A stretch of DNA of 64,000 nt from a phage: the NCBI GenBank assembly GCA_022979955.1, contig GCA_022979955.1_3642.1; one strand, written 5' to 3'. Of this stretch, positions 2,974 to 21,091 are shown piece after piece; position 1 is the stretch's first letter; the number at the start of each line of letters is the position of its first letter. Position numbers and translations under genes: made by a program. The notes under the pieces are model-generated. The model made no database searches. It was given only the letters and a program-made list of their open reading frames with translations, and was not told the DNA's origin.

Positions 2974-3171
2974 ATGAACGCCTACGGAATCAAAGTACGT
3001 CGCAGCACTCGCCAGGTGGTCACCGATCAAATGGTTTGCCAGGTGGATGTAACCATCAACAACGGGCAAGGCCTTTATAAATTTCGTCGCGGTCATAGCT
3101 ATACCCTGCAACAGCTTAATCGTTGCGCCCTGACAAAAGGCCAGATCAACCACTGGTTTAATAAAAAATAA
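2974..3171 (+). CDS. hypothetical basic protein
   Basis: ORF track; GAGAGGATAAAAAATC-ATG leader. Confidence 0.5.
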   Translation: MNAYGIKVRRSTRQVVTDQMVCQVDVTINNGQGLYKFRRGHSYTLQQLNRCALTKGQINHWFNKK

Positions 3172-3173
3172 AT

Positions 3174-3203
3174 ATTGACATATAGTCTGACACAAAATAT
3201 ACT
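3174..3203 (+). promoter_or_regulatory. sigma70-like promoter TTGACA-N18-TATACT
   Basis: near-consensus hexamers upstream of gene 3236. Confidence 0.5.
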
Positions 3204-3235
3204 GAAATCACAAAAGACACTAAGAGGATAAAATC

Positions 3236-3634
3236 ATGAAAACCACAACCTTTAATTTTGATAATGCCGACTTCTCTTTTTCTGATGTCAAGAACTGCCG
3301 CCGTGATCGTGGATTTTACAAGGCTTATAATCTGGTTGGCCTGGACGATGATAATAATTTGCACGAAGTAGCGGAGATCCGGTACTATGCCGCCGCCAGC
3401 GGTAACACTAACTATTGCGTTTTTTGGATACACGACAACAAGAACAATAAGTACGGTTATACTGGCGGCAAGGCGAGCGGTCACGGTTATGATAAAGCTA
3501 ACGCAGCACTTGAGAGCGCATTAAATGCTATGGGGATCACTGCCAACGGCTGGGTCTATGAAGAAGAGTTTTTGTCGGCACTTGCTGACCATCTAGGCTA
3601 TAAAAAGCACATTGTAACATGCGCCCACGAATAA
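3236..3634 (+). CDS. hypothetical protein
   Basis: ORF track; AAGAGGATAAAATC-ATG. Confidence 0.55.
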   Translation: MKTTTFNFDNADFSFSDVKNCRRDRGFYKAYNLVGLDDDNNLHEVAEIRYYAAASGNTNYCVFWIHDNKNNKYGYTGGKASGHGYDKANAALESALNAMGITANGWVYEEEFLSALADHLGYKKHIVTCAHE

Positions 3635-3716
3635 AAATCATTGACACGCTGCAAAATTTAAGTAAACTAGGCACAAAAGGTGGGAATGTTTCCCGCCAAC
3701 ACGAAGGAAAAAGATC

Positions 3717-4121
3717 ATGAATAAGAACATACGCCGCATCATGAACGAACTGGCAAACGATGAAAAAATTATTGACATGCATTTAGTCAACATTTGCCGC
3801 CGTTGTGTAACATATAACAACCGCGCCGCAAAAGCGCGTGAGATGAACGCAAAAGGCACCTTAAAGCCATTCCAGGTGGTGGTAAAGGCCATTAAAGATG
3901 TAACTAATACGGCAAACCAGGTACAGGGGAACACCAACGAGAGTACCAATATTGATCCGGCTTACATCATGAAACGGATCCGGACCTGCAAGAACAAAGA
4001 GCAAGTGTATAATGTCATAGACTGGTTGGATTCTATGGGCGATGTGGTTTACAATAGGTTTTCTGCAGCTATCGAGATCCAGCTTGACAGGTTGGACGGT
4101 AAAGTACTGAAAACTTACTAA
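3717..4121 (+). CDS. hypothetical protein
   Basis: ORF track; promoter TTGACA at 3646 and leader hairpin upstream. Confidence 0.55.
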   Translation: MNKNIRRIMNELANDEKIIDMHLVNICRRCVTYNNRAAKAREMNAKGTLKPFQVVVKAIKDVTNTANQVQGNTNESTNIDPAYIMKRIRTCKNKEQVYNVIDWLDSMGDVVYNRFSAAIEIQLDRLDGKVLKTY

Positions 4122-4122
4122 G

Positions 4123-4168
4123 TTTATTTTTAGATGGCCTTGACTCCAGGGTCATCAATAAAGTAAAC
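4123..4168 (+). promoter_or_regulatory. conserved about 45-bp palindromic cassette (TTTATTTTTAGATGGCC-TTGACTCCAG-GGxCATCAATAAAGTAAAC), copy 1
   Basis: near-identical copies at 4744 and 8456; inverted repeat GATGGCC/GGCCATC encloses a -35-like TTGACT; A/T tract upstream. Confidence 0.45.
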
Positions 4169-4202
4169 TAATCTCAACTAAGCGAAAAAGGGGGGCTTTA
4201 AG

Positions 4203-4322
4203 ATGAGCACTACACGCCAATACACAAAGGTAACTATTATCGTTTGCGTTGTCGGTTACATCCTGGCGCAAATGTTAATGAGTAGCGCTAACAGTTTTGC
4301 AAAATTTTTCTTAAATTTTTAA
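4203..4322 (+). CDS. small hydrophobic peptide ORF (39 aa)
   Basis: AAGGGGGG SD; single predicted TM-like stretch; below track cut-off. Confidence 0.25.
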   Translation: MSTTRQYTKVTIIVCVVGYILAQMLMSSANSFAKFFLNF

Positions 4323-4401
4323 TTGACAAACTAACTTAGATCGATATACTTAAACACGTAAACGGGAAAACTTCCCAGAGCACACAAAAGGAGAAAACAC
4401 C

Positions 4402-4743
4402 ATGACTACTATGACCGCCGCAGAAAAAGCTATGCAGATCGCCGCGCTGAAAAAACAGATCGCAGACCTTGAGAATAAGATCGATAACTTTGAAATCGAC
4501 GAGGACAAGTACGACGAAAACTATGATGAATGGTTAGACGAGATCTACGGCGAAATCATGATCGGAAACATTTCTTTTCTTCCGTCGCGTATCCTCAAGG
4601 AGCTAGATCCTATCGCTTACCGCTGCGGATTTAGCGACTACATCGACAGCCTGGATATTGAGGACGATGAAGAATACCAGGAATTACAGACAGAGCTCGA
4701 AGAAGTGAAAGAAGAGCTTGCAGAACTGGAAGAAAACGAGTAA
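4402..4743 (+). CDS. hypothetical highly acidic protein
   Basis: ORF track; AAAAGGAGAAAACACC-ATG; D/E-rich with coiled-coil-like ends. Confidence 0.55.
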   Translation: MTTMTAAEKAMQIAALKKQIADLENKIDNFEIDEDKYDENYDEWLDEIYGEIMIGNISFLPSRILKELDPIAYRCGFSDYIDSLDIEDDEEYQELQTELEEVKEELAELEENE

Positions 4744-4790
4744 ATTTATTTTTAGATGGCCTTGACTTCAGGGCCATCAATAAAGTAAAC
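4744..4790 (+). promoter_or_regulatory. conserved palindromic cassette, copy 2
   Basis: matches 4123..4168 apart from 2 substitutions. Confidence 0.45.
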
Positions 4791-4832
4791 TTTAGACTGT
4801 TAACACTTAACCAATACAGAGGAGTTAAAACC

Positions 4833-5078
4833 ATGGCCGCACTAATTACCAAATATTATGCCCCTACCAACACCAAAAGCGCCCGTATCATGGTAAAAGG
4901 CTTCGGACGTAAAAAGGTTTACACCTGGGATTATGCCTTAGACACGGAAGACAACTACACCAACGCGATGACCGATTTTATTAATGATCTGAACACGCGG
5001 ATCTTAACAAATTATAAAATTACCGACATTGCTTATATAGGTGAAGGCGGGATCTGTTTTGTAGGCATTGTGAAATAG
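4833..5078 (+). CDS. hypothetical protein
   Basis: ORF track; CAGAGGAG SD. Confidence 0.5.
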   Translation: MAALITKYYAPTNTKSARIMVKGFGRKKVYTWDYALDTEDNYTNAMTDFINDLNTRILTNYKITDIAYIGEGGICFVGIVK

Positions 5079-5152
5079 TTATTTTTTCGGTGGTCCTGGC
5101 TGCAGGGCCATCTATAAAGATAATTTATTAACACAATGAAAGGAGAAAGTAC

Positions 5153-5506
5153 ATGATCAGCGGGGCAAGTTTTATTATTGGCGCTATTGCTACGGCTTTA
5201 ATTGTAAACAAGATCCAATCTAAAAACGAAAAAGAGAGCAACGCGCTCACAGAATACCCATTTTGGGTATTCAACGACAATGAAGACTACATTATCAAGT
5301 ACAAGAATGAGAAGGGCGACCAGGTAACACCGCGACCGATCCCAGCTTACAAGATGCAAGAAACACTATACCGCCTAAAGGCTGGAGGCGCAAAAATCGT
5401 AGACTTTTGGGGATATGATTGCAAGGATCAGGAGGTTATAAAACGGCGTATCCGGGCGATTCAGGCAAATATTGAAGTTAGCAAGGGGGGAATATATGAA
5501 GATTAA
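5153..5506 (+). CDS. hypothetical protein with N-terminal TM segment
   Basis: ORF track; AAAGGAGAAAG SD; preceded by variant of the palindromic cassette at about 5085..5135. Confidence 0.5.
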   Translation: MISGASFIIGAIATALIVNKIQSKNEKESNALTEYPFWVFNDNEDYIIKYKNEKGDQVTPRPIPAYKMQETLYRLKAGGAKIVDFWGYDCKDQEVIKRRIRAIQANIEVSKGGIYED

Positions 5507-5693
5507 TTTTGAGAAGATTGTAAAGCGATCTCATGATTCCGAAGAGTTGCCGGAACGCCGCCAGCGCAACAATAAATTGAATAAGCCAAAAAGATTTGGG
5601 AAGATCTGGCGGAATCATTATGATCGTAAATTGCCGGGCCTACTTTTGGAACGTGAACGACAGGCGGAACGATACCGCCACAAAGGCAAATAA
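5496..5693 (+). CDS. hypothetical basic protein
   Basis: ORF 5472..5693 trimmed to ATG with AAGGGGGG SD; K/R-rich. Confidence 0.4.
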   Translation: MKINFEKIVKRSHDSEELPERRQRNNKLNKPKRFGKIWRNHYDRKLPGLLLERERQAERYRHKGK

Positions 5694-5699
5694 CAACCA

Positions 5700-5728
5700 A
5701 CGCCCCGCCATTGTGCGGGGCTTTTTAT
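5700..5728 (+). terminator. rho-independent terminator
   Basis: CGCCCCGCC-loop-GCGGGGC hairpin followed by TTTTTATTT. Confidence 0.55.
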
Positions 5729-5851
5729 TTCTATCATACGAATAGCGCCCCTGGTTGGCCCTGTAAGCGCCAAAAAGGCCCCCACCTATGCAATCGCCCC
5801 CTTTAACCTGAAAACATCGCCCAGGGCCGTTTTATGGCGTTAAAAATATCA

Positions 5852-5879
5852 TTGACATCGTCAACAGGTTAGCTATACT
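5852..5879 (+). promoter_or_regulatory. sigma70-like promoter TTGACA-N16-TATACT
   Basis: hexamers read directly; upstream A/T tract. Confidence 0.5.
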
Positions 5880-5911
5880 AACCACATCAAAGAGAGGAAG
5901 GAGTAAACGCC

Positions 5912-6172
5912 ATGCGTAAATTAAAAAATTTTGATAAAGTTGATGTTATCCTGAATAATTTTTACTACTGCAACAACAAGGCTATTTGGTGGCGTGATAG
6001 TTCCACCGATAAAGTCAAGGCGCGCTTTCTCCAAGGGCACTGGCAAGGCCGCCCAGTGATTAAAATCATGGGGCAATTGGTAGCGTTTAAAAATTGCCGC
6101 CGTGTTGATGACGTTGAGGAGATTTTAAACATTTTGCGCCACAATAATTTAAAAAATAGTGTTGACAAGTAA
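5912..6172 (+). CDS. hypothetical protein
   Basis: ORF track; GAGGAAGGAG SD. Confidence 0.5.
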   Translation: MRKLKNFDKVDVILNNFYYCNNKAIWWRDSSTDKVKARFLQGHWQGRPVIKIMGQLVAFKNCRRVDDVEEILNILRHNNLKNSVDK

Positions 6173-6189
6173 ATCTCAATAAGTATACT
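6162..6189 (+). promoter_or_regulatory. sigma70-like promoter TTGACA-N16-TATACT
   Basis: followed by leader hairpin GGCGGGAAAACTTCCCGCC then SD. Confidence 0.5.
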
Positions 6190-6246
6190 TAAACACACAG
6201 GCGGGAAAACTTCCCGCCACTAACAAAGAAAATAGGAGAAAATATC

Positions 6247-6870
6247 ATGACCACCGTTAACATTACCGCAGGTTACAATTTATCTTTCGACGTGCTGACC
6301 GACGAACAAAAAGAAAAAGCTATTGAAATGGTCCGCGAAAGAGAAGAACACAGTGGGGATAACTTTTTTGCAGAAAGTGTAATTGAATACTATAAAGAAT
6401 ATGTTTTTCCAGAGTACGGGCTTGAAGATACAAAAGTACATTGGTCAGGCTTTTGGTGCCAGGGTGACGGCGCGTCAATCAGTGCGGAAAACGTGGATTT
6501 AGAAAAATTCTTGCGTAAAGTCAAGTCTCTGACTAAATTCCGCTCAATTCGTCGCTTGTTCGGCACAATGCACGATGGCGAACTATCCGCAAGTGTTGAG
6601 CGTGATCCATATAGCCGCTATAGTCACGAAAACACTGTAAGCGGGTACATCGATACTACATGGCTAGACCTGACCGCCAAACAAGAAAATAAAGTGGAAG
6701 ATCTGGAAGAGCTGATCACCGAGACGGTACGGGAGCTATCCCGCAAGGTTTACGTAGACCTGGAGGAGGCCTATCTAGAACAGTTCACTACCGAAAACCT
6801 GATCGGCCTTATTGAGGCCAATGATTGGCGGTTTGATGTAGATGAATATGGAGAGATGAGTTTTTCATAA
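6247..6870 (+). CDS. hypothetical acidic protein (207 aa)
   Basis: ORF track; AATAGGAGAAAATATC-ATG. Confidence 0.6.
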   Translation: MTTVNITAGYNLSFDVLTDEQKEKAIEMVREREEHSGDNFFAESVIEYYKEYVFPEYGLEDTKVHWSGFWCQGDGASISAENVDLEKFLRKVKSLTKFRSIRRLFGTMHDGELSASVERDPYSRYSHENTVSGYIDTTWLDLTAKQENKVEDLEELITETVRELSRKVYVDLEEAYLEQFTTENLIGLIEANDWRFDVDEYGEMSFS

Positions 6871-6959
6871 ATAAAGTGTTGCAATAATCTAAAAACCTGC
6901 TATATTAAAACTCAAGGGGCAAGACGTTTGCCCCCACACAAAACAAAGAGGAAAACATC

Positions 6960-7340
6960 ATGAAAAACACTACTAAAGCTATTGACACCGTCATGTTTAA
7001 CCTAGTTACCTTTCGCGAGGATATGAAAGATCTTCCACGTGAAACAGTGTGCGATCACATTGAAAACTATCGCAAACTAATCAAAGAGTTGCCTTTAAAA
7101 CGTGATCAGTATGCGGCTAACGCCATGCTTAATGCCATGATCAAAAAGATGATCCAGTGTGATTTAACTCTGGCCTATGACTATGCGGGTGGTCGTTTTG
7201 CAGTATACAATCAGCCCGTGCCCGGTATGGGCACCACCGAAGAATTGCACGCGTTAAATCTGAAGCAAGATGTATGGGATAACATGCCCCGCGTGGTGGT
7301 GTGGGCAGAAAGCGGAAAGATTTACGGCGATAATTTTTAA
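6960..7340 (+). CDS. hypothetical protein
   Basis: ORF track; AAAGAGGAAAACATC-ATG. Confidence 0.55.
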   Translation: MKNTTKAIDTVMFNLVTFREDMKDLPRETVCDHIENYRKLIKELPLKRDQYAANAMLNAMIKKMIQCDLTLAYDYAGGRFAVYNQPVPGMGTTEELHALNLKQDVWDNMPRVVVWAESGKIYGDNF

Positions 7341-7404
7341 TCAGGTAACAGGCGGCATATTTGCCGCCTTATTGTTAAACAGAACTGCAAAAGAGGTACA
7401 TAGA

Positions 7405-7776
7405 ATGGAATTTATTATTTTGGCTGTAGTAGTTGCCTTGTTCAACGCCTGGATCGCTGGCAAGATAGGTAGATCCGCTTTTCTATGGTTTGTTATATCT
7501 ATTTTCCTGGGAGTGGTTGCAACTATTGTATTGGTTATCCTTGCAATTGTTGACAAGGGCGATAATAGAAAGGGTAAAGTGTTTTCCGACCTGTATGACG
7601 CACAAACGTTTGTCAACGCCTATTATAGTGATCTTCCAGTCTCCCTACGCTGCAGCCTGGCACAACAGGTTTTTGATGAGGCTAAAACCAGAGACCAAGC
7701 CCATGAGATATGTTTAACTGAGGCGGATCGCCTATTTGAGAGGAATAGAAAATATGTGGACCAGCCGTTTAAATAA
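7405..7776 (+). CDS. hypothetical membrane protein (2 predicted TM)
   Basis: ORF 7270..7776 trimmed to ATG at 7405 with AAGAGG SD. Confidence 0.5.
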   Translation: MEFIILAVVVALFNAWIAGKIGRSAFLWFVISIFLGVVATIVLVILAIVDKGDNRKGKVFSDLYDAQTFVNAYYSDLPVSLRCSLAQQVFDEAKTRDQAHEICLTEADRLFERNRKYVDQPFK

Positions 7777-7999
7777 CGCCACGTTAATTAATCCCTTTAG
7801 TGAAGATTTGAAGCCAGCCGCCTGGCGTGACGGATTCAATAACGAACGCTTTATTTTCAGGCCTGATCTTGAGGAATTTTATAACAATGGATCGAACAAC
7901 AGCGGAGATAATTTTTCTTGTGATGTGCGTGGTGATGGTACTCCTGGGGGCCATTGTAAACCACGTCACTACTACCAGGAGGAAAGGGGGAGACGATGA
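7754..7999 (+). CDS. hypothetical protein (uncertain; alternative overlapping micro-ORFs at about 7887 and 7996 encode TM peptides)
   Basis: ORF track trimmed to ATG with GAGAGG SD; low-complexity C-terminus. Confidence 0.25.
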   Translation: MWTSRLNNATLINPFSEDLKPAAWRDGFNNERFIFRPDLEEFYNNGSNNSGDNFSCDVRGDGTPGGHCKPRHYYQEERGRR

Positions 8000-8107
8000 C
8001 AACCAAGGATAAGCCCCGCACCGATAAGGTGCGCCAGGTTATGGTATGGCTTGAGATCATCGCCCTTGAAATATTGTTAGGGGTAGGAATGTACTTTATT
8101 GCTATAA

Positions 8108-8137
8108 GTAACTGATAACGCCCCCGATCATGGGGGC
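8108..8137 (+). terminator. rho-independent terminator
   Basis: GCCCCCGATCATGGGGGC hairpin followed by T-rich run. Confidence 0.5.
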
Positions 8138-8254
8138 TTAACTTTTTCAAAAAATTTTTCTTCCAGGGTGTTGCAATCTGGTCCGCAATATGGATAATAA
8201 CAATCAACGGGGAAACATCCCCACCAACACAAAAACCAGAAAGGAGAAACAAAA

Positions 8255-8455
8255 ATGAGCAACAATATCCGCGTTATTAACTTCAAAAAAGAAGAAAAAA
8301 TTGCCGTGCTGATTGACGGTCAAGAAATATTCAAGGGGTATTATGAAGATCATCAAACGGCGATTAGTATCACTCGCGTGATTGGTTACCATAATTTTTA
8401 CCCTCAAGGCGCTGAGGCAGCAGTAAAACGAATTAAAGAGATTGTAGGCCTGTAA
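8255..8455 (+). CDS. hypothetical protein
   Basis: ORF track; AAAGGAGAAACAAAA-ATG; promoter TTGCAA..GATAAT upstream. Confidence 0.5.
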   Translation: MSNNIRVINFKKEEKIAVLIDGQEIFKGYYEDHQTAISITRVIGYHNFYPQGAEAAVKRIKEIVGL

Positions 8456-8503
8456 AATTTATTTTTAGATGGCCTTGACTCCAGGGCCATCAATAAAGTA
8501 AAT
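8456..8503 (+). promoter_or_regulatory. conserved palindromic cassette, copy 3
   Basis: identical core to copy 2. Confidence 0.45.
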
Positions 8504-8546
8504 TTAAACCCTGTTAAAATAATCAGTGCAAAAAGGAGTAATGATC

Positions 8547-8846
8547 ATGTTTATCCAGGCTAATAATCTTTATTTCTTTGATGGTCAGATCGTAGACGGC
8601 GTGGAGGTGGAAATCACCGGGTGCCCTGGCGGTCAGGTTATGACTTTTCGGAATAATGCCTTTGATGATTCTCATATCGTTATGAGAATGGAAGTTAGTA
8701 AGCTGGATGACAAGAAAACACTTATCGACTATTCCGTCAAAGATCATCCAGACTACCACATGATCTATGGTGATTTGTGCATTGTTGACCGTGACAAGGT
8801 GAACGGCATTGTTATAGCCATTGTGAACGATGTTTTCTCTGAATAA
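8547..8846 (+). CDS. hypothetical protein
   Basis: ORF 8526..8846 (GTG) trimmed to ATG at 8547 with AAAGGAG SD. Confidence 0.5.
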   Translation: MFIQANNLYFFDGQIVDGVEVEITGCPGGQVMTFRNNAFDDSHIVMRMEVSKLDDKKTLIDYSVKDHPDYHMIYGDLCIVDRDKVNGIVIAIVNDVFSE

Positions 8847-9069
8847 TTCCGGCAAATGATGCAAAATAAGGCCCCTAGCAGGGCCTGCAGCGATATAATC
8901 ACATAAAGGCTATGCGGTTGCATGTCCTTTATTATTTTAGCGTTACAGCGGCCCCAAGGCGCTTAAAAAAATTTTTAAAGAAGTACTTGCATCAAGCCCT
9001 ACAATATGGATAATAGGACGTGTCAGGGGGAGGCCCCAATCATTAACCGGATAGATAGGAGTTAAAACC

Positions 9070-9354
9070 ATGGCTATTGTTACCGCTGGCGATGTAGTAG
9101 AAATGGAAGCAAAATACTTAAAAGCGGGTATGCATATCCTACGCAACGATCTTGAACTGGTCCTGACAATGGTTGACTATAACCCAGGGCAAGATTATCC
9201 AAGTGTTGACTACTTTTTTGAGTATGTTGATGAAGAGTTGAAAGAGGATGAGGCCTATTGCGGTGAGTTCTGCAACTTCTTTTGTCCTGATGAGGTTGTA
9301 AAGGTTATCTATCAACCTGGCGTAGCTTTCCCGCTGCACGCTATCAATAAATAA
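9070..9354 (+). CDS. hypothetical acidic protein
   Basis: ORF track; ATAGGAG SD. Confidence 0.5.
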   Translation: MAIVTAGDVVEMEAKYLKAGMHILRNDLELVLTMVDYNPGQDYPSVDYFFEYVDEELKEDEAYCGEFCNFFCPDEVVKVIYQPGVAFPLHAINK

Positions 9355-9358
9355 ACCT

Positions 9359-9382
9359 GGCGGGGCCGAAAAGGCCCCCGCC
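9359..9382 (+). terminator. terminator-like GC hairpin (GGCGGGGCC-GAAAA-GGCCCCCGCC)
   Basis: perfect stem read directly; weak U tract. Confidence 0.4.
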
Positions 9383-9416
9383 TGAAATTATGAAAAATAA
9401 AAAGAGGCAAACTATC

Positions 9417-9650
9417 ATGATGGAACAAATTAAACGCGCTGAGGCTATTAATGGCAATGTGATCTATTTTGTCAGCAAAAACGAAAAAGGCGTACCCTAT
9501 GCGGCGGTAATAGTACAGCCTGACGGCGATTATTGGTGCACTGTGTACGGCGCTTATTCTTTTGGGCGTCCAGTGCATGATAAAATTTTGAAAGTAGCGA
9601 ACCCTACCGGGAAAAATATTACAGCAGAAAAATTTTTTGAAAATAGTTGA
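9417..9650 (+). CDS. hypothetical protein
   Basis: ORF 9390..9650 trimmed to ATG at 9417 with AAGAGG SD. Confidence 0.45.
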   Translation: MMEQIKRAEAINGNVIYFVSKNEKGVPYAAVIVQPDGDYWCTVYGAYSFGRPVHDKILKVANPTGKNITAEKFFENS

Positions 9651-9725
9651 CATGACCATATAAAACTGTAGTATATAAATCAAAGGGGGCAACAAGCCCC
9701 ACCAACCACAAAGAGGATAAAAATC

Positions 9726-9905
9726 ATGGCTATTATTGCAAAGACTGAGATCGTAGGCTTAGATTCTATTCTCCTCGCATATGAGGAAGCTATAGAAATG
9801 TATGTAGTTTCCTATGGTGAGTATATCCGTGAATATAAATCTATTGATCTGGCTTTTGAATGTTATATTCGCCAGGTAAATAAAGCATATGATGATTATC
9901 GTTAA
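9726..9905 (+). CDS. hypothetical protein (59 aa)
   Basis: promoter TTGACA at about 9643, leader hairpin, AAGAGGATAAAAATC-ATG; just below track cut-off. Confidence 0.45.
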   Translation: MAIIAKTEIVGLDSILLAYEEAIEMYVVSYGEYIREYKSIDLAFECYIRQVNKAYDDYR

Positions 9906-9996
9906 AATAGTTTGACAACAATTACAAATCGGGTAGAATGTATTTCGTAGGGGAGACAAGCGCCCCATTAAACGCAACAGGAAGAGGATAAACACC

Positions 9997-10242
9997 ATGA
10001 AAAGCAATAAAGGTTATAACGGTTACAAAAACAAAACTCATTGGAATGTAAGCCTTTGGATTAATAACGATGAGTCATTGTACCGGTTGGCCCAAGGCTT
10101 TATTAACGCTAATGCTAATCGTAATGATGCGGCGCGGGATATGATGCTTTTTCTGGAGCTAACCGGACAAGATAAGACCCCGGACGGCTTCAAGTACAGC
10201 ACTACGGCGATCCGTTCCGCGATGGTTGGAATGAAACACTAA
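9997..10242 (+). CDS. hypothetical protein
   Basis: ORF track; promoter TTGACA..TAGAAT; GAAGAGGATAAACACC-ATG. Confidence 0.5.
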   Translation: MKSNKGYNGYKNKTHWNVSLWINNDESLYRLAQGFINANANRNDAARDMMLFLELTGQDKTPDGFKYSTTAIRSAMVGMKH

Positions 10243-10319
10243 AAGCACATAGCCGCCTTACCCTGGGGCTGTAGTAGCGGCCCCATGAATAAGGTTACTA
10301 ACAGAAGAGAATAAACACC

Positions 10320-10424
10320 ATGAAACAGAAATTAATCGATGCAGTGATCTTGGTTATTGCCCTTGGTATTGGCCTGATTGCAACCATGTCTAATATGATC
10401 TTGTCTTCCAACGGTATCGGGTGA
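10320..10424 (+). CDS. small hydrophobic peptide ORF (34 aa)
   Basis: AGAAGAGAATAAACACC-ATG leader as in neighbouring genes. Confidence 0.3.
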   Translation: MKQKLIDAVILVIALGIGLIATMSNMILSSNGIG

Positions 10425-10433
10425 GGTTGGCAA

Positions 10434-10649
10434 ATGATCACTAACAAAACAGGCAAAACAGAATTTTTACGCGGCTTGCAAATAGGTAAGCCTGAGATCT
10501 GGCATTGCACTAAAACACCACGCGACGAAATGAAAGACTTTACCGCCACGCTGAAGCGGGTAAAGATATCCATTACGCAGAAAAAAGCCTTGATAGTGGT
10601 GGAAGGTGAGATCCCTCAAGCCGTTGTTATAGTTGAGCGTACAGCATAG
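10434..10649 (+). CDS. hypothetical protein
   Basis: ORF track; GGTGAGG SD. Confidence 0.45.
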   Translation: MITNKTGKTEFLRGLQIGKPEIWHCTKTPRDEMKDFTATLKRVKISITQKKALIVVEGEIPQAVVIVERTA

Positions 10650-10740
10650 TTTAATTTATACCGATACCCGAAAATTAACCAACAAAGCATAAACAGGCGG
10701 TTGCCGCCGCCTTAAACGTAGCAGAAAGAGGATAGATACA

Positions 10741-11025
10741 ATGAAAAAGATGATCGCAGTGGTTGCCCTGGTTGTTGGACTTAATGCGCCTGTAATGGCC
10801 AAAGAGCTGGCAAAAGAGGTAGATCTAACTGATATCCATGCCGTCAATCAAATCGGTGTTACTTATCGCCTATGCCTTGCCGCTAAAACTTTCCAGGATG
10901 GCACGACAGAGTACTACGGATTCGAGGGCGTTCGGTGCGGTGAACTTGCTCACGACCTTAAAGAAGATCCAGACCTGGAGGATCTGCCGATAACCGTAAA
11001 CGGGAAAACTTACGTGAACCGTTAA
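10741..11025 (+). CDS. hypothetical secreted/periplasmic protein
   Basis: ORF track; signal-peptide-like N-terminus MKKMIAVVALVVGLNAPVMA; AGAAAGAGGA SD. Confidence 0.5.
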   Translation: MKKMIAVVALVVGLNAPVMAKELAKEVDLTDIHAVNQIGVTYRLCLAAKTFQDGTTEYYGFEGVRCGELAHDLKEDPDLEDLPITVNGKTYVNR

Positions 11026-11170
11026 CCATGAGAAAGATAATTATTACCATTGGGATCGTGGCGGCAATGTTGGCGATCTTTCCCTTTATGGTTAGGTATG
11101 TGCTGATTAATGTTGTCCTGGTAGTCAGTGATCTGGTGTTATATATTAACTCATTGTTTTAGGCGCGATA

Positions 11171-11362
11171 ATGACAGCGGAAGAAGTTAAAAAAGTACTG
11201 GCGGTACTGCGTTATCATAATCATTGCAAGGTGAAGAATGATCCTGATTATCTTGATTCATCCCTTGAAGAGGATACACTACAAGCCATAAGCAACATGC
11301 AAGAATTGCTTAAGCGTATGACAGAGAAAAACCGACCGGACTACATAGGGGGTAAAATATGA
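11171..11362 (+). CDS. hypothetical protein
   Basis: ORF track; weak SD. Confidence 0.4.
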   Translation: MTAEEVKKVLAVLRYHNHCKVKNDPDYLDSSLEEDTLQAISNMQELLKRMTEKNRPDYIGGKI

Positions 11363-11670
11363 TCGCTATTACGCCAACCGTTTTAGATTGGTATCGGCAA
11401 CGCATAGCGCCTCCGCTGGCTATCTTCAAAGATGCGGAAGCAAAACAACGCCGGATCTCAATACATGAGATCATCAACCTTAACGCCGGAGGCACACCAT
11501 ACCGCCCAGGACCTGGCCGTGAGATGGACAATACGTTAGCGATCCTGAAGATACGCCGTAAACGGTCCTCCCTTACTCTGGACTCATTACACACAATGCA
11601 GCCTCCGTTCCAGGTGACCGGGAAACGGATCGCCAGGTCCTGGACAAAGGCCAATGATCGGACCGTATAA
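11359..11670 (+). CDS. hypothetical protein
   Basis: ORF track; AGGGGG SD; ATGA overlap with upstream gene. Confidence 0.45.
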   Translation: MIAITPTVLDWYRQRIAPPLAIFKDAEAKQRRISIHEIINLNAGGTPYRPGPGREMDNTLAILKIRRKRSSLTLDSLHTMQPPFQVTGKRIARSWTKANDRTV

Positions 11671-11756
11671 ATAAAAGTGTTTTGGTACTGATTTTGGGGT
11701 TGACTTGTTCGGCCCCTTTTGCTATTCTTATTAAACGGGCGGCACTTGGGAACAGG

Positions 11757-11779
11757 GGGAGACAATCACCGGGCCTGCC
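11757..11779 (-). repeat. 23-bp element, inverted copy B of 2332..2354
   Basis: exact reverse complement of copy A. Confidence 0.55.
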
Positions 11780-11887
11780 TGTCATATAAGAACTATAAAA
11801 ACCGTTGACATCTGCCATGGGGTGAGGTAACATTTATCTTGAAGGGGCAAAAGTGCCCACACAACAACCAGGAGAGAGGAAAACACT

Positions 11888-12160
11888 ATGTCAAGCTGGA
11901 TTAATCAAGAAGTCGAATCACGTTTTAATGCTATTTGGGATCTCATCGAAAAAGAGGACGGAACATCAAGCCCCTATCTCAACAATTTGGAATTCCATTT
12001 TGTGGAAGCGATGAACGCAGAACATGATCACGAAGGTGGCGCGGATGAGTTCGCTAAAGGTTATGGCTTTAACAATGCCAACGAAATGATCGAGGCGGTC
12101 GTACTCCAAGCTGAGGAAGATTATCAATTAAAAACGCTTGAATTCTGCCGCCATAAGTAA
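11888..12160 (+). CDS. hypothetical acidic protein
   Basis: ORF track; promoter TTGACA..TAACAT, leader hairpin, GGAGAGAGG SD. Confidence 0.5.
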   Translation: MSSWINQEVESRFNAIWDLIEKEDGTSSPYLNNLEFHFVEAMNAEHDHEGGADEFAKGYGFNNANEMIEAVVLQAEEDYQLKTLEFCRHK

Positions 12161-12220
12161 TAAGATAATGACACGGGCCAAAAGGCCCACTAATCAGAAC
12201 CGCACAAAGAGGTAAACATC

Positions 12221-12484
12221 ATGAAACGTCTTGATCAGCTCAAATTAGTTCAATATATGGCTTATCGTGTTCTTGAAGTCCAGAAAGGTAGCAAAAAAGA
12301 GGTTTGCGAGAAAGCTTATAAGATCTTCACTCGCAAAAAAGATGACTGGATGCTACGCCAGACTAAAAAGGCTGACATCTTGGGGTACCTGGAAGAAGAG
12401 ATCCGCCTTGAAGAGCAAGAAGAGATCCGCCGTAGTGAGGCAGATTATCAGGCAGCTTGGGAAAACTGGATGAGCAACAAATAA
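12221..12484 (+). CDS. hypothetical protein
   Basis: ORF track; AAAGAGG SD. Confidence 0.5.
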   Translation: MKRLDQLKLVQYMAYRVLEVQKGSKKEVCEKAYKIFTRKKDDWMLRQTKKADILGYLEEEIRLEEQEEIRRSEADYQAAWENWMSNK

Positions 12485-12550
12485 TACAACAAGTTACATG
12501 GTCAGGGGCAATAAAGCCCCTTGATCACATAAAAATTATGCTATCCCTGG

Positions 12551-12579
12551 TTGACAGGGATCGGCAGTTTTGCTATATT
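12551..12579 (+). promoter_or_regulatory. sigma70-like promoter TTGACA-N17-TATATT
   Basis: hexamers read directly upstream of gene 12628. Confidence 0.5.
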
Positions 12580-12627
12580 CTTTTTGAAGGGAAGTTGTAA
12601 GAAAATTAACTAAGAGGTAAAAACACC

Positions 12628-13047
12628 ATGAACATTAAATCTAATAATCCGGCATATAGCTTTGATAACGCTTTTTGTCACGGTCCGGCGGCGAAAGGAT
12701 TCGAAATCGATGGTAAACTAATTATTGTCAATGTTGACGGGGAAGAGGTTGCAGTATATCCGGTGGCAGACGTAAAAAGCCGTTTACAATGCCGCATGGA
12801 TGTTACCGCCTATCAGCTTGATCCGGTCCGCATAGTTGCCCTGGTCCTGGAAGAAGAAATTAAAGCCATGCACCATAGCAACAGATTTATTGGTGACGCG
12901 CAGGATAATATGAAAGTATGCCGCCATAAAGTTAATGAAGTGCTTAAAGAGTACGGCTATAGAGATCTTATGATCAAACGTGAGGAAAAATTCCGCTACC
13001 GTAACGACCTGGCAAATCGGATTTTTGAAATATACGAATCATTATAA
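12628..13047 (+). CDS. hypothetical protein
   Basis: ORF track 139 aa; AAGAGGTAAAAACACC-ATG. Confidence 0.55.
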   Translation: MNIKSNNPAYSFDNAFCHGPAAKGFEIDGKLIIVNVDGEEVAVYPVADVKSRLQCRMDVTAYQLDPVRIVALVLEEEIKAMHHSNRFIGDAQDNMKVCRHKVNEVLKEYGYRDLMIKREEKFRYRNDLANRIFEIYESL

Positions 13048-13065
13048 TTTTTTAACTGAATTATC

Positions 13066-13092
13066 AAGGGGCTTAGGCCCCTTTCTTTTTGT
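13066..13092 (+). terminator. rho-independent terminator ending the + strand early block
   Basis: AAGGGGC-TTAG-GCCCCTT hairpin followed by TCTTTTTG. Confidence 0.55.
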
Positions 13093-13695
13093 CTGCTCTT
13101 CTCCTACCATAAACGGCCCTACCTGGCAAGTGGAATAATTGACTAGCCATCAATCCCACATACTGTACAAATATACATGGAAAATAACTATTGCATAATT
13201 TTTCATTGTGTGGTAGCAAGTCCATTTTTACCCGTTTTCTCTCCCAAAAGTGCACGTAATGCCGCTATTGCACAAATTTTAACCTGATGCACATCTCTAA
13301 TATCTTGTCAACAACTAAAAATCTTTATAAGTCATACACTTACACAGCATCGAAAGCGTGTTCTACGCGAAAAATCGAGTATAACTATAGCCGCCAGATC
13401 TCAGAATTCACGTACGCACGCCATTCTATAGCCTGCAAAGTATTTATTCCAACCACAGAATAACGGAATAGTCAATACCTGCATAAAATAATTATTCGTG
13501 TAAACTGCATAACATAAATCAGCTCAGGTGTCAACATTTTTCGTAAACAGTTCGAAATTGTCACGGTAAGTTATTATACACAGAGAAATCTTTAGTCGTC
13601 TAATGGTTACTATACATTACTAATCTGACTGGAATCATTAGATGACTAATAGAAAGATAAGAAATAATTAACAGTCTAATTATATTAACGATAAC

Positions 13696-13970
13696 AATAA
13701 CAGCGGTTAAAGTCATGGCGCGACGGAGTCGCGACATAATAACACCGAGTAACCCTCACCCCCGTGAGCGTTGCGAATGTTATTATGCCATGACTAAATC
13801 ATTTCAACACGTAACTATAGGCATAACAACATTCCCTCGGTGTTATTATGTCGCTAGTTATTATATAACTGTTAACAATAACGCCTCGGGAATAGTTCTG
13901 CCTGCACGATGTTTATAACAGCAAGTTATGATCAACATTTCACAGATTATAATAACAGCGGTTAAAGTCA
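13696..13970. repeat. 20-bp direct repeat AATAACAGCGGTTAAAGTCA (13696..13715 and 13951..13970)
   Basis: two identical copies read directly. Confidence 0.6.
13731..13854. repeat. 19-bp perfect inverted repeat GCGACATAATAACACCGAG / CTCGGTGTTATTATGTCGC separated by 86 bp
   Basis: arms at 13731..13749 and 13836..13854 are exact reverse complements. Confidence 0.6.
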
Positions 13971-14597
13971 GGCGTAGAAACAGTGGAAGTGTAAACAGTC
14001 AATCATGTAAATGATAAGTATGTGAACAGTTATCCATGTAAACTATTAGACATGTAAACAATCAGGTGTGCAAAAGTGTCAAGGGTGTCACCATTGTGTC
14101 TAAAGTGTCGTATGTCATCAGTATGTCAGACAAGTTTTTCTCCTCTTTGTCAAGTGCTGCATGAAAAATTTACAATCTTGTATGGTAGCATTTTTGCGGT
14201 CCTGTTTACATTCAGAGATGTATGTATAATCCTTGTTGTGTGGGCGTTTAGACGTCTAGACGGTCAGAAGTCTGCAGGTCAATATCTAATCTATTGGCTG
14301 CTAACTATATCCCACACAAATAGTAAGAAATATAATTGTTATATGCGTAAACAGTAACCCATGTTATCAATCCCTGTATGGATCGCCAGTGGTGCGCATA
14401 ATGGGTATTATGTTAAATTGCCCGTAATGATAATGGTTCTCACAATGATATGTATTCTCATTCCCCCACACAAAATAGATTGCAAATGTTGTGCCACTAT
14501 GTGAACGGCCTCACCTATTAATTTGCCTCACTGCCTCGATATTTGAGAATTATTATAAGAATGAGAAGTATTCCCATTTCGTCCGCCTGGCAGCGCT

Positions 14598-14900
14598 CCT
14601 GTAGGTCCTGCAAGGACTCTAGCTGAAAGCTAGACCCTTCGGGCCTCCCTGTAGGTCAGGTCAAAATCGTGGTAGAATTGGGCCTATTCAGATATTTCTG
14701 GCTGGCTCTTCAGGTCTGTGTGGGAAAAGCCAACCTCTCCGGCGGGGCAGGGGGAGGTAAATTAAAAAATTTACGGGGTATATGAAGCGCTCTTCAGGTA
14801 AGGCATGTACTATGGGATGAAACCCTCTTCAGGCAATGATATTTGTGGGTGTGATATTTGCTGGAAAGCCAGATATGACGGGACTCCCGGCGGGGCAGGG
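14598..14900. repeat. cluster of short direct repeats: CCTGTAGGTC x2, CTCTTCAGG x3 (4th at 15238), CCGGCGGGGCAGGG x2
   Basis: motifs read at 14598, 14647; 14706, 14790, 14825; 14739, 14887. Confidence 0.55.
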
Positions 14901-15596
14901 GTAGTACAGACAGGGAAAATATGAGAATGTAGTTGGGGAAATTGATCAGACAGGTAGAGTATGGAATATGTTACAAGTATGTTAAATATGGAGGTTGAAT
15001 ATCTGTAGGATTTGTGTGTAAAATCAAAGACTTAAGGGGTGTTGTGGTATTTTCTATAAATAATTCAAGTTTAATAGGCAATATTTGTCTCTATCCGCTT
15101 TGTGTGGTAAACAGATTCAGATTAGATTGGTTTACAAGTGTATACATAATATACAAATTAAAGATACAAGAAACCCCCCTCCCCCTTCGGCTACCATTCA
15201 CCTTTTCCTCTGACTGGTACTTAAACACTTATTCAGACTCTTCAGGTTATCACCCATATATCATATGGCAGTGACTGGTGTCCTCCGGCCCCTCTTTCGT
15301 CACCCGTCCGCTTCGCCATGCTAATGCCATAGCTAATGGTTCGGTTGTTCACCCTGTTCACTCAGGTGTATCTCTATACCCCTTCAAACCGAAGAGAACA
15401 GAAAACCCGAATTACTCGGTAAAAGAAAAGAGAAGAACTTAATTTTATCAGGATAGGCAAGAATGTCAAGGCATGACTGCTCACTAAACAAGCAAACAGT
15501 CATGTGTGGGAGGTAAGTGATTGTGGTGGTAGGAAATTTAGTTGAAAGATGTGTTATAGGTGCTTCCAGCACTTTAGCCTGGCAGCTAATTGTGTG

Positions 15597-15812
15597 TCAG
15601 TCCAGCGGTTCATCCTCTACTTCACTGAAATCAATGTTCATGGTCTCTTCCCAACCATCGATCTCAGCACAAGAGTGGAGTTCTTTAGGGTTTACTCCCA
15701 AAGCCTCAGCAACAGAGTCTATATTTAACACCTCTGGCAGGTATGTTTCATCGAATTCAAGGTAAATCAGGCCACGAGTGTTGTCAGCTCCACCAAATAT
15801 TTCTATCTTCAT
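15597..15812 (-). CDS. hypothetical small acidic protein (MKIEI... N-terminus)
   Basis: ORF track; last gene of - strand block. Confidence 0.45.
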   Translation of the reverse strand: MKIEIFGGADNTRGLIYLEFDETYLPEVLNIDSVAEALGVNPKELHSCAEIDGWEETMNIDFSEVEDEPLD

Positions 15813-15933
15813 GAAATCTCCTCTGGAAATGAGAGTGTGAACAGGGTTTTATACGTTCCAATGCACTGGAATTATACACGTTTGCCTCTTCAGGCCATGC
15901 TTTAGCATGAGGAGCCTGTGTGGGCTCGGTGCT

Positions 15934-16347
15934 TCATAGTCTACCACCTCTGAACTCTTCGTGCTCAGGCATAATAGAGAACCAGATATCTACGATGTCT
16001 TCCCACGTTAGGTCATCAGCCTCAGGATCTGTCTGGGACGAAGATGGAGAATCTTCAGAATCGAAGTTTTCCTCTTGCACTGGCTCAGTCAAGGGACATA
16101 TAGTCACTCCTTTGGATGTCTCTTCAGATGCATGTGTGTTTATCATGTTCCACCCGTGAGTATTCCGGCAACAGCCACTATGGACGTAATGATCATCAGG
16201 ATCACCACCAAAACCTCTGACAATGTTTTCATTGTGTATCCCATATTCTCCAAACGATGTGTGGATACTATCACTGGAGCGGCAATGTGTCAACAGAAAC
16301 GCCGCGAGGGTTTGGTTAAAATCCGAGCGTATGGTGATTTGGGTCAA
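15934..16347 (-). CDS. hypothetical acidic protein
   Basis: ORF track 137 aa. Confidence 0.4.
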   Translation of the reverse strand: MTQITIRSDFNQTLAAFLLTHCRSSDSIHTSFGEYGIHNENIVRGFGGDPDDHYVHSGCCRNTHGWNMINTHASEETSKGVTICPLTEPVQEENFDSEDSPSSSQTDPEADDLTWEDIVDIWFSIMPEHEEFRGGRL

Positions 16348-16451
16348 AACGGACGTGCGTTCTCGCTACGCTCGAAAGAGAGACTTGTTTGTAGAAAGCT
16401 CTTAAACGCTCTGTAACGAGATTATCTGTCCAAGGTATGCAATCGTGCACC

Positions 16452-16482
16452 AGATAAAGAAAAGGACGCCACAGAGCGTCCT
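16452..16482 (-). terminator. rho-independent terminator (- strand)
   Basis: GGACGC-CACAGA-GCGTCC hairpin followed by U-rich run on - strand. Confidence 0.5.
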
Positions 16483-16506
16483 AGGTGTCTTAAATTTGAT
16501 ATTTTG

Positions 16507-16818
16507 CTATACCCATGAGGGCTTATCAAGGTTGGAGTAGCTGAAAGGTGTCAAAAGGTGACTGTCAAAATCCCTCAAACTATCCAAATCTTTTTCCTCG
16601 TCCTGACACCATCTGTGCCTACATTTATTGTTGTAGTGCATAGAATGCATAGCGTTCTGCAACTTAACAGGTACAAGTGATTCAGGAGTAGATAGTATTG
16701 TTGGGTATGCCAGAATCACCTCAAACAGTGGAAACACATCGAAACTAAAGTCTACCTCTGCAGAGGTTGATGGCATATAGGAGTATTTAGCCGCCTTTGT
16801 AGACATAATCCACCTCAC
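16507..16818 (-). CDS. hypothetical protein
   Basis: ORF track. Confidence 0.4.
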   Translation of the reverse strand: MRWIMSTKAAKYSYMPSTSAEVDFSFDVFPLFEVILAYPTILSTPESLVPVKLQNAMHSMHYNNKCRHRWCQDEEKDLDSLRDFDSHLLTPFSYSNLDKPSWV

Positions 16819-17141
16819 ACAGGTTTGATAATACCTTTACCGAATAATTCTTCGTATCTAATCTTATCCGGATCCCACTCTTGGATAATTTCGAAGACAA
16901 TATCCAACCCAGGGATAATCACTTCTCCAGTGTCAAGTTTGGCAAGAACAAAACCAGAAGGCTGAATGGTTTCCCAGTTGCGCCGATTGGAATAGAAGAC
17001 CTCGAAAATATCGCCGACCTTTATCTGTTGATCAAGATGTTCAAGATTCTCTTTCATATAGACGCAGCGGATTTTTCGTGCAGGCCATAGACCACCTGCA
17101 TCACGTTCATTTAGCTCTTTTACAGTAATCGGTATACCCAT
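16815..17141 (-). CDS. hypothetical protein
   Basis: ORF track; 4-nt overlap with downstream gene. Confidence 0.5.
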   Translation of the reverse strand: MGIPITVKELNERDAGGLWPARKIRCVYMKENLEHLDQQIKVGDIFEVFYSNRRNWETIQPSGFVLAKLDTGEVIIPGLDIVFEIIQEWDPDKIRYEELFGKGIIKPV

Positions 17142-17162
17142 CTCAAATCTCCTTCATAGATA

Positions 17163-17190
17163 GTAAAAAGAGGGGCCCAAGCCCCCCTCT
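17163..17190 (-). terminator. rho-independent terminator (- strand)
   Basis: AGAGGGG-CCCAAGC-CCCCTCT hairpin followed by UUUUU on - strand. Confidence 0.5.
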
Positions 17191-17196
17191 TTGTCA

Positions 17197-17502
17197 TTAT
17201 TCTACAGAGCGTTTGAACAGAATGTCTGCCTCAGACATGTGCTCAACCTCTTCTTCGATTTTAGCGCGACGTTTTTCAGCCTCATAGCGAATATCGAACT
17301 CGGTAGCCACCAGAGATTTGATGAATTTAGGAGAATACAGGTGATCCTGCTTCTCAACGAGAATGATATCCTTAATGGCATCTTTCAGATCTTTAATCTG
17401 AAGTTGGAGTTCTACCAGTTCTTCGATTGTTTTGCGAAGGCGATCACGCTCTGCAGTGTCAGAAGGAAGAGAGGTGAACAGTTCAACTTTAGATTTAGCC
17501 AT
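17197..17502 (-). CDS. hypothetical coiled-coil protein
   Basis: ORF track; charged heptad-like sequence. Confidence 0.5.
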   Translation of the reverse strand: MAKSKVELFTSLPSDTAERDRLRKTIEELVELQLQIKDLKDAIKDIILVEKQDHLYSPKFIKSLVATEFDIRYEAEKRRAKIEEEVEHMSEADILFKRSVE

Positions 17503-17530
17503 AGTAAGAGTCTCCTTATGTTGTTTTAAA

Positions 17531-17782
17531 TTAACGTTCTACAAAAATACCGTTCAGTTCAATAACCAGGAATTTCTGGTCTTCACTATCGTCTCGTGCC
17601 AGCACCTCACAGACGTATCGGTCATCCCCATCATCATCGCAGTCAAATACAAGACTGAGGACTTTATCATGGTAAACCTTCGCCACTACCGCCTCGTAAG
17701 TATTGCCGATTGTGAATCCAAGATAATCTCCGATGCATTTGACAACAACATGGTCTCCAGCATTTAAGTCAATCTTCGTCAT
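17531..17782 (-). CDS. hypothetical acidic protein
   Basis: ORF 17531..17848 trimmed to ATG at 17782 preceded by AAGGAG. Confidence 0.45.
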   Translation of the reverse strand: MTKIDLNAGDHVVVKCIGDYLGFTIGNTYEAVVAKVYHDKVLSLVFDCDDDGDDRYVCEVLARDDSEDQKFLVIELNGIFVER

Positions 17783-17937
17783 TACTGCGCTCCTTGGGTA
17801 ATAATACTGTATGTAAAACTTTAACCAGAGATGTGAATAACGCCCCAAAACACACCGATAGCGCTAAAACAGACAAGGCCATCATTAAAGCTTCAGTAAA
17901 ATCAGTCATTCCTCACCTCTTGTTAGTCACTATACTA

Positions 17938-18201
17938 TCATTTATCCTTGTCGTCAAGAACTTTTTTAAATCTTTCAGGGATATCTCCCGTTCTTAGATA
18001 GTTCATGACCTCGCAAGGTTCCCACTTGAATTTCTTACAGAGCAGGGCGGCTGAGATTGTTTCATTGCGAAAAGAAAGGATATTAATATCCCACTCTGAG
18101 AACCCCAACTTCCGAAGGGTAGCTACAGAAATCCTCACCGCAACCCAGCAGCAAAAACATGCAACAAACGCCACTGCTACAACCCACATCAGGATGTTCA
18201 T
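17938..18201 (-). CDS. hypothetical membrane protein
   Basis: ORF track; N-terminal hydrophobic helix. Confidence 0.45.
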   Translation of the reverse strand: MNILMWVVAVAFVACFCCWVAVRISVATLRKLGFSEWDINILSFRNETISAALLCKKFKWEPCEVMNYLRTGDIPERFKKVLDDKDK

Positions 18202-18290
18202 ATAAGCACCTTACTGAAATACAAGACACAGTGTTAAGGTTACTGACCAGCAAATAATTAACAGTGCCGTTGCAACCTTGGCAAGATTTA

Positions 18291-18578
18291 TCATAGTGCC
18301 TCTAAGATTTCATATCCTTCGGGTCGGAATACAAGCCACTCTGTGGCTCCGTTTGGTCGATACGCTTTATACAGAACAACCTGGTCTCGGCACATGCACA
18401 TGGCTACATAGTTTTCATCCACACCTGCAGCCTGCATTGTATCTTCTTCTCCGGCAACTGCTTTGCTTACAACCTCCTTGGTAGGCAGGTGTGCGATCAG
18501 CTCGTCACCATCATTAATTCCAAAATGGCTGAGTTCTCCATTGGTATCTTTAATCTTAATCTTAACCAGATCTTTCAT
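18291..18578 (-). CDS. hypothetical small acidic protein
   Basis: ORF track; tiled with neighbours. Confidence 0.5.
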   Translation of the reverse strand: MKDLVKIKIKDTNGELSHFGINDGDELIAHLPTKEVVSKAVAGEEDTMQAAGVDENYVAMCMCRDQVVLYKAYRPNGATEWLVFRPEGYEILEAL

Positions 18579-19518: not shown

Positions 19519-19547
19519 TCGGTCTCCTATCTTGTTAAGATGAAGGT

Positions 19548-19586: not shown

Positions 19587-19594
19587 CAAGAAAA

Positions 19595-20322: not shown

Positions 20323-20326
20323 ATTC

Positions 20327-20954: not shown

Positions 20955-21091
20955 TTAGAGGTCTCCTCGATTATTTGATATTAATAGCCGTAACCTAACA
21001 CATTAACTACAACTGCGATTGCAAACATAATTTCAAAGCATGCAATCTCTACATTTGGGACTAATTTCTTAATCATACCCATTGTAGCACC

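Follow-up and report, generated by a model that had tools for sequence, protein, structure and literature searches.

The stretch of DNA analysed here, called the window, is a 64,000-nucleotide (nt) contig (GCA_022979955.1_3642.1 of NCBI GenBank assembly GCA_022979955.1) from an rV5-like Escherichia phage of the genus Vequintavirus; a megablast search with positions 3500-12000 returned 303 phage records, the top matches having 100% coverage and ~93-94% identity. As an earlier note on this DNA had pointed out, the window contains six very short open reading frames (micro-ORFs), each encoding a peptide of 33-44 amino acids (aa) with a single strongly hydrophobic stretch. With the stop codon included, m1 (39 aa) lies at 4203..4322, m2a (41 aa) at 7887..8012, m3 (39 aa) at 7996..8115, m4 (34 aa) at 10320..10424 and m5 (44 aa) at 11028..11162, all on the plus strand, and m6 (33 aa) at 20981..21082 on the minus strand; the limits first given for m1, m4 and m6 were exact, while two ends (8015 to 8012 and 8118 to 8115) and one start (11029 to 11028) were corrected. 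On the strength of their conservation in related phages, all six appear to be true genes selected for their protein product, m2a with less certainty than the rest.

Regarding hydrophobicity, the highest 17-residue Kyte-Doolittle mean of the six peptides ranges from 2.36 to 3.32. ORFs of 30-50 aa that start with ATG and reach a mean of at least 2.0 number 15 in the window, against 2-7 in ten dinucleotide-type shuffles; at least six of these 15 are look-alikes that lie antisense to a gene or out of its frame, and a hydrophobic stretch by itself does not prove a gene. The Shine-Dalgarno (SD) sites were graded by their duplex energy with the 3' end of the 16S rRNA, for which 80 long genes gave a reference median of -6.5 kcal/mol. 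Most of the micro-ORFs had been credited with strong sites, and this proved right for two of them, m1 (AAAGGGGGG, -11.2 kcal/mol) and m3 (-10.7 kcal/mol); m6 (GAGGTG, -6.9 kcal/mol) and m2a (-6.2 kcal/mol) are close to the median, m4 is weak in the window (-2.9 kcal/mol) with a GAGG present in other alleles, and m5 has no SD (+0.3 kcal/mol), its ATG lying 2 nt past the upstream stop codon (TAAccATG).

The coding status was assessed on homologous stretches from 20-33 related genomes or contigs, which were aligned, with substitutions inferred on neighbour-joining trees; synonymous and replacement changes were counted and compared with an expectation corrected for the observed transition bias. 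Scans of IMG/VR and of metagenomes contributed ~6 extra loci and a contig search three more; the power for m2a and m6 is limited. Each ORF is open in all the relatives that carry its gene. In m1 (4203-4322), 30 synonymous changes were counted with 31 replacements, where 27% synonymous were expected (p = 1.5e-4); the corresponding counts are 33 and 30 for m3 (7996-8115; p = 8e-6), 28 and 35 for m4 (10320-10424; p = 1.3e-3), whose replacements are conservative (p = 0.0012), and 70 and 133 for m5 (11028-11162; p = 5e-4), a frame that remained open across ~203 inferred changes (P = 5e-4 without selection). The off-frames of the same four ORFs provide an internal control, and none of them is significant (p = 0.09-1). 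The purifying selection on m1, m3, m4 and m5 is significant and, by these counts, confined to their own frame. In addition, an intact m1 occurs in 19 loci, as nine variants of the peptide, and tblastn located it in 113 records of phages, while m6 is present in 118 records; residues 4-33 of the latter are identical in six genomes, and its gene has 4 variable sites in 102, against 39 in 318 for the adjacent HPF/RaiA-like gene. An Rfam search of 3000-22500 at E values up to 1 gave one chance-level match and no RNA family accounting for the conservation. A trinucleotide frame model could not discriminate in five of the six cases, where the alternative frames are interrupted by stops, and it gave spurious antisense ORFs a score of 1.0 as well.

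Five of the six genes are already catalogued, m2a being the exception. In the type phage rV5, ORF193, 181, 173, 170 and 145, of 39, 39, 46, 44 and 33 aa, are listed as 'membrane protein, 1 TMD' (transmembrane domain; Kropinski et al. 2013, PMC3606486, Table S3). They occupy orthologous positions and are the same genes as m1, m3, m4, m5 and m6, the differences being allelic only, with a longer start in ORF173. Searches of PHROG gave matches over the whole profile to phrog_16391 (m1, E = 3.8e-31), phrog_13629 (m3, 8.2e-31), phrog_14631 (m4, 8.1e-23), phrog_16005 (m5, 1.2e-25) and phrog_15151 (m6, 5e-26), whose labels carry no function; m2a matches no PHROG family. The description of these ORFs as overlooked therefore does not hold for the five that have been in the rV5 type genome since 2013 and have a PHROG family each. 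What does hold is that annotation pipelines often skip them: they are omitted in roughly 45-65% of the annotated relatives. Of 45 annotated records sampled for m1, 20 call no coding sequence there, and for m5 the figure is ~23 of 36. No Pfam functional family was found for the peptides, and the protein searches with m2a, with the 94-aa and 123-aa neighbours described below and with m5 (the last against 1.84 billion representatives) returned close phage relatives only.

The sole new element concerns positions 7754-8012, for which the frame in general use among annotators is probably not the right one. The frame annotated in relatives is m2b (7754..7999, plus strand; rV5 ORF182, phrog_12060, E = 8e-52), the start of which overlaps the preceding gene; m2a lies in its +1 frame and encodes a single-pass peptide with a transmembrane (TM) segment followed by RRK, and with the C-terminus predicted inside. 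All the annotated relatives examined at the locus call the m2b frame except Gotham, which calls m2a, and ime, which calls neither. The Gotham protein, F10B_0188 (QLF82679.1, a 41-aa hypothetical protein), is 88% identical to m2a over its full length and is the sole GenBank record found that calls an m2a-type frame; in a collection of 5.8 billion proteins, the frame is called in three clusters. It appears that nobody has remarked on this conflict before.

The two frames differ in how they evolve. The first 44 codons of m2b (7754-7885) are constrained, with 30 synonymous and 39 replacement changes (p = 0.004); past 7887, its tail has 18 and 65 (p = 0.97) and a ratio of replacement to synonymous rates (dN/dS, or omega) of ~1.55, and the switch in constraint at 7887 is significant (Fisher p = 0.0034). 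Along this tail, the third codon positions vary the least and the stop shifts, giving proteins of 73, 74 or 81 aa. In the m2a frame, variability follows the classical order of positions (3 > 1 > 2), with an omega of ~0.68 (p = 0.06; 29 distinct sequences); the ATG is invariant and the ORF is kept in these 29 sequences from 33 loci, and the TM core has undergone at least 11 replacements, none of them to a polar residue. Compared head-to-head, 35 changes are silent in m2a only versus 16 silent in m2b only (p ~0.005 by events, 0.08 by sites), event counts that recombination has possibly inflated. An uncorrected dN/dS test for m2a, with p = 0.005, was replaced by the transition-bias-corrected one that yielded the p of 0.06.

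It is conceivable, if doubtful, that 7887-8012 is a chance open frame inside a real gene at 7754-7999 and has no separate product. The trinucleotide composition of the overlap speaks for this, favouring the m2b frame by 0.91 to 0.09, as does the probability of 0.40 that the m2a frame stays open by chance without selection, both of which weigh against m2a; so do the synonymous excess of m2a and the per-site head-to-head comparison, at p = 0.06 and 0.08, and an SD-like GAGGAA of average strength located 10-12 nt from the ATG. Against a chance frame stand the fast tail of m2b, its quiet third positions and moving stop, the constraint switch at 7887, the invariant ATG of m2a and a TM core that gained no polar residue. 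Ribosomes might also shift into the +1 frame at GAGGAA-TTT-T (7871-7880), an invariant sequence, which would fuse the soluble N-terminal domain of m2b to the m2a helix; since no slow codon follows that sequence, this is given only the slimmest chance.

Overall, the evidence for the m2a frame is moderate, short of decisive. On the substitution patterns, m2a is quite probably a true gene with its own initiation site that overprints the fast-evolving tail of m2b; slightly less firmly, we favour the reading in which m2a is real and ORF182/phrog_12060 is genuine for its first ~44 residues only, its tail being an out-of-frame shadow of m2a. If so, this would hold for the ~119 Vequintavirus genomes with this module, and a conserved 41-aa membrane peptide would be missed nearly always.

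The genes around m2a form an operon of membrane proteins (7405-8115), which begins with a 123-aa protein with 1-2 TMDs (7405..7776, plus strand; rV5 ORF183). This protein is under strong purifying selection (omega ~0.06), has no Pfam family and is named 'putative holin' in the BASEL phages. The last gene is m3, the ATG of which is inside the 3' end of m2a; it encodes a single-pass peptide with a basic N-terminus that varies among relatives. Its TM helix, WLEIIALEILLGVGMYFI, with two membrane-embedded Glu residues, is identical in 33 of 33 loci, the pattern that one would expect a sequence-specific helix-helix contact, rather than a mere anchor, to leave. The most divergent lineage (L005/L007) has a 3-nt in-frame insertion in m3. 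The operon ends with a strong intrinsic terminator (8120..8137, plus strand), which has a dG of -14.1 kcal/mol and a T-run behind it and is annotated in phage Murica.

The single-pass peptide m4 corresponds to Murica gp158 and bas52_0122. It has two N-terminal alleles, strongly diverged and of equal length, and a TM segment that varies freely; a C-terminal motif, A(T)xxN(M/V)ILSS(N/H)GIG, is common to both alleles, and the tail NMILSS(N/H)GIG occurs also in the Phapecoctavirus-like phage PsgM04F. A gene for a 71-aa protein (10434..10649, plus strand; omega ~0.09) follows 9 nt past m4, with its SD within the final m4 codons; the two genes are always found together, and the unit (10320-10649) occurs behind three different upstream contexts.

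Further downstream (10741-11162), a 94-aa protein with a signal-peptide-like N-terminus (10741..11025, plus strand) directly precedes m5, a very hydrophobic peptide; the next gene, of 63 aa, starts 8 nt downstream. From the arrangement of the junction, TAAccATG in the window and an ATGA overlap in PsgM04F, m5 is taken to be translationally coupled to the 94-aa gene. Its length is exactly 44 codons also in Phapecoctavirus, which belongs to another subfamily, and among 1.84 billion proteins it forms three clusters at 50% identity, all of 44 aa. In-frame indels occur in L007, the most divergent lineage, and in four relatives (L002, L005, L016 and L019) m5 is absent as a clean gene-sized gap (11026-11170), replaced by ~20 nt with the neighbours intact. 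Two C-terminal alleles were observed, DLVLYINSLF and DLLETVGT(L/W)F. In phage V18 (L021), part of the region homologous to 11028-11362 is deleted, so that m5 reads on, without a change of frame, into the final ~20 codons of the 63-aa gene; the product would be a 63-aa chimera, and it is unannotated in V18. Two assignments of m5 were rejected: Pfam DUF7396, for which the best of 14 variants scored 16.2 bits (E = 0.012), under the gathering threshold of 27 bits, and a lipoprotein, as none of the variants has a Cys and LPAM_1 gave 13.8 bits against a cut-off of 20.

This tight packing could also mean that translation of the short ORFs, chiefly m4, m5 and m2a, serves to couple or tune the neighbouring genes, the peptide itself being unimportant. 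Such a mainly regulatory role would agree with the spacing of m5, which is separated by 2 nt from the gene in front and by 8 nt from the one behind, and of m4 (9 nt before a neighbour whose SD it contains), with the missing SD of m5 and with the omega values, highest in m5 and m2a; we regard it as quite unlikely, in view of the selection detected at the amino acid level, the conservative replacements, the lengths of 34 and 44 aa strictly held across subfamilies, and the four phages in which m5 is cleanly deleted and both neighbours are retained.

At the left end of the region, m1 encodes a single-pass peptide with its N-terminus inside by charge. A sigma-70 promoter close to consensus (TTGACA-16-TATACT, 4323..4350, plus strand), the 'P192' of rV5, adjoins its stop codon, and the A/T-rich stretch that precedes the promoter coincides with the final m1 codons. 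Directly upstream of m1 is the first of three copies of a near-perfect 46-nt hairpin repeat (4122-4168, 4744-4790 and 8457-8503, plus strand), each placed immediately past a stop codon of the early region. The copies have a dG of about -21 kcal/mol and a z of about -5.8 (-20.9 kcal/mol and -5.8 for the one at 4122-4168); the hairpin is built of 10 GC-rich pairs atop a 9-pair A/U stem, with TTGACT in the loop. On the coding strand, its U-tract is 5' and its A-tract 3', an order that does not fit a usual terminator of these genes. RNase III might process the transcript here, as it does the early mRNA of T7, or the hairpin might end transcription of the antisense strand.

On the minus strand, the single-pass m6 lies between the HPF/RaiA-like gene and the next gene. 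The former (21092-21409), directly upstream of m6, encodes a homologue of ribosome hibernation factors (Ribosomal_S30AE, E = 1.8e-12), and several GenBank records give the m6 ORF the name 'sigma 54 modulation factor', apparently an annotation spill-over from this neighbour. The same strand, the coding one in each case, has three more hydrophobic micro-ORFs that were absent from the earlier note: 17769-17909 (46 aa, SD GAGGTGA; rV5 ORF156, 'membrane protein'), 16143-16244 (33 aa) and 24976-25095 (39 aa; rV5 ORF131, 1 TMD). Between ~13050 and 15900, where the gene polarity changes from plus to minus, the window is ORF-poor, with nothing above 93 aa; this segment matches a 2.6-kb stretch termed 'non-coding' in the rV5 paper (Kropinski et al. 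2013, PMC3606486).

As for the genomic setting, the region of the micro-ORFs is the leftward arm of an rV5-type genome, which in rV5 has 88 ORFs, mostly small, and sits in one transcription unit with the genes for DNA polymerase and rIIB (Kropinski et al. 2013, PMC3606486). A scan of 3000-12500 found five sigma-70 promoters matching at 11 of 12 positions (TTGACA-16/17-TATACT or TAGAAT) and four intrinsic terminators, both numbers exceeding the shuffle expectation. Because of these promoters and terminators and of the rV5 transcription unit, we take the micro-ORFs to belong to early accessory arms transcribed by the host polymerase. With regard to the databases, ~20 unverified and unannotated records (MG0656xx) named 'Campylobacter phage' share ~93-96% identity with the present sequence, that of an rV5-like E. 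coli phage; their host is probably mislabelled.

This setting bears on the suggestion that the peptides are holins, antiholins or other lysis-timing peptides. All six are small membrane proteins, m2a has a charged C-terminal tail, and the 123-aa neighbour bears the 'putative holin' label in the BASEL genomes; that label was derived from a search for TM helices, with no functional test. Each peptide has one TMD, 33-44 aa and no large periplasmic domain, and they belong to early operons under sigma-70, with 27-44 kb between them and the gene for the endolysin, a lambda R-like protein (E = 3e-56 to 1AM7) encoded at 48050-48520 on the minus strand. The holin proposed by the rV5 authors is none of these ORFs; it is gp129, with 2 TMDs (Kropinski et al. 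2013, PMC3606486), the homologue of which is at 25210-25446 on the minus strand. A holin or antiholin role is thus disfavoured, and we consider it highly improbable for the six. The micro-ORF at 24976-25095 (minus strand), two genes downstream of the gp129 homologue, is a better lysis-associated candidate than any of them owing to this proximity.

The reading that we favour, with somewhat better than even confidence, is that the six ORFs are genes for 33-44 aa bitopic inner-membrane peptides that act as small partner or modulator subunits and are encoded in the early sigma-70 arms of the genome. The peptides would be expressed together with the small accessory genes of these arms, which are transcribed by host sigma-70 polymerase, and each would insert in the cytoplasmic membrane, by the positive-inside rule with the N-terminus inside for m1, m3, m4, m5 and m6 and the C-terminus inside for m2a. 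Each would then bind a larger membrane or periplasmic protein, of the phage or of the host, via helix-helix packing or a short tail motif, and no lysis holes would be formed. Candidate partners are found within three modules: (i) the 123-aa protein, m2b, m2a and m3, ending at the terminator; (ii) m4 and the 71-aa protein; and (iii) m5 with the products of its two flanking genes, the secreted 94-aa protein and the 63-aa protein. Conservation of modules reaches across subfamilies. By analogy with phage exclusion proteins and with small membrane regulators of bacteria, envelope takeover or superinfection exclusion would be the most plausible role.

The peptides may instead depolarise the membrane like type I toxins, so as to shut off the host, or in order to set off abortive infection or oppose it. 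Their size and hydrophobicity are like those of TisB, Hok, Ldr and DinQ, and their genes are in early operons; nevertheless, neither Pfam (E up to 1) nor PHROG matched them to a toxin family, and Rfam (E up to 1) returned no known antisense or regulatory RNA in 3000-22500, a novel RNA being outside the reach of such a search. Moreover, the lack of variation in the m3 helix and the conservation of the m4 tail suggest a specific partner over generic membrane damage, and we hold a toxin role to be unlikely. For the roles put forward in the earlier note, namely holin or antiholin, toxin and anti-defence, no positive evidence was gained.

Returning to the partner-subunit reading, a number of points weigh against it. 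The constraint is moderate, with omega ~0.2-0.5 for m1, m3, m4 and m5 and 0.68 for m2a, for which the overlap composition given above is also unfavourable; the +1 frame of m5 has a weak synonymous excess too (p = 0.09), and m6 has just 5 changes, too few for a dN/dS test. m5 is naturally dispensable in several phages. Homology to any characterised protein was found neither in PHROG and Pfam nor in the protein collections, and the searches with neighbouring genes yielded no functional clue; partner binding and exclusion are analogies, with no sequence homology behind them. Literature searches brought up no transcriptome, ribosome profiling, functional screen, localisation or phenotype report covering these genes.

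In conclusion, the gain for phage biology is modest: a widespread genus that includes therapeutic phages has at least 8 or 9 tiny membrane proteins, which about half of the deposited genomes leave unannotated. A search for partners could start from the invariant m3 helix with its two Glu residues and from the secreted protein to which m5 is coupled. As a calibration of genome scanning, picking coding-strand hydrophobic micro-ORFs in gene gaps was accurate here, as all six look real, and several antisense look-alikes in the window were correctly left off the list.

Among the known systems, holins and pinholins resemble the six peptides in being membrane-inserted phage proteins; as a rule they possess 2-3 TMDs, or else a large domain in the periplasm, are late and lie beside the lysis genes, and the six peptides have none of these traits. 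Type I toxins (Hok/Gef, TisB, Ldr, Ibs, DinQ) are likewise hydrophobic one-helix peptides, of 19-50 aa; here there is no match to their families, ShoB included, nor evidence of an antisense RNA in the searches above, and the SD sites are unsequestered. AcrZ, MgrB, MgtS, CydX and KdpF are small single-pass membrane regulators of E. coli, and HK97 gp15 and T4 Imm and Sp are phage moron or exclusion proteins. None of these has sequence similarity to the six peptides, and HK97 gp15 and T4 Imm and Sp are larger; the likeness is one of size class and of having just one TM helix, together with the shared idea of a conserved helix face or a short tail that binds a larger membrane protein.

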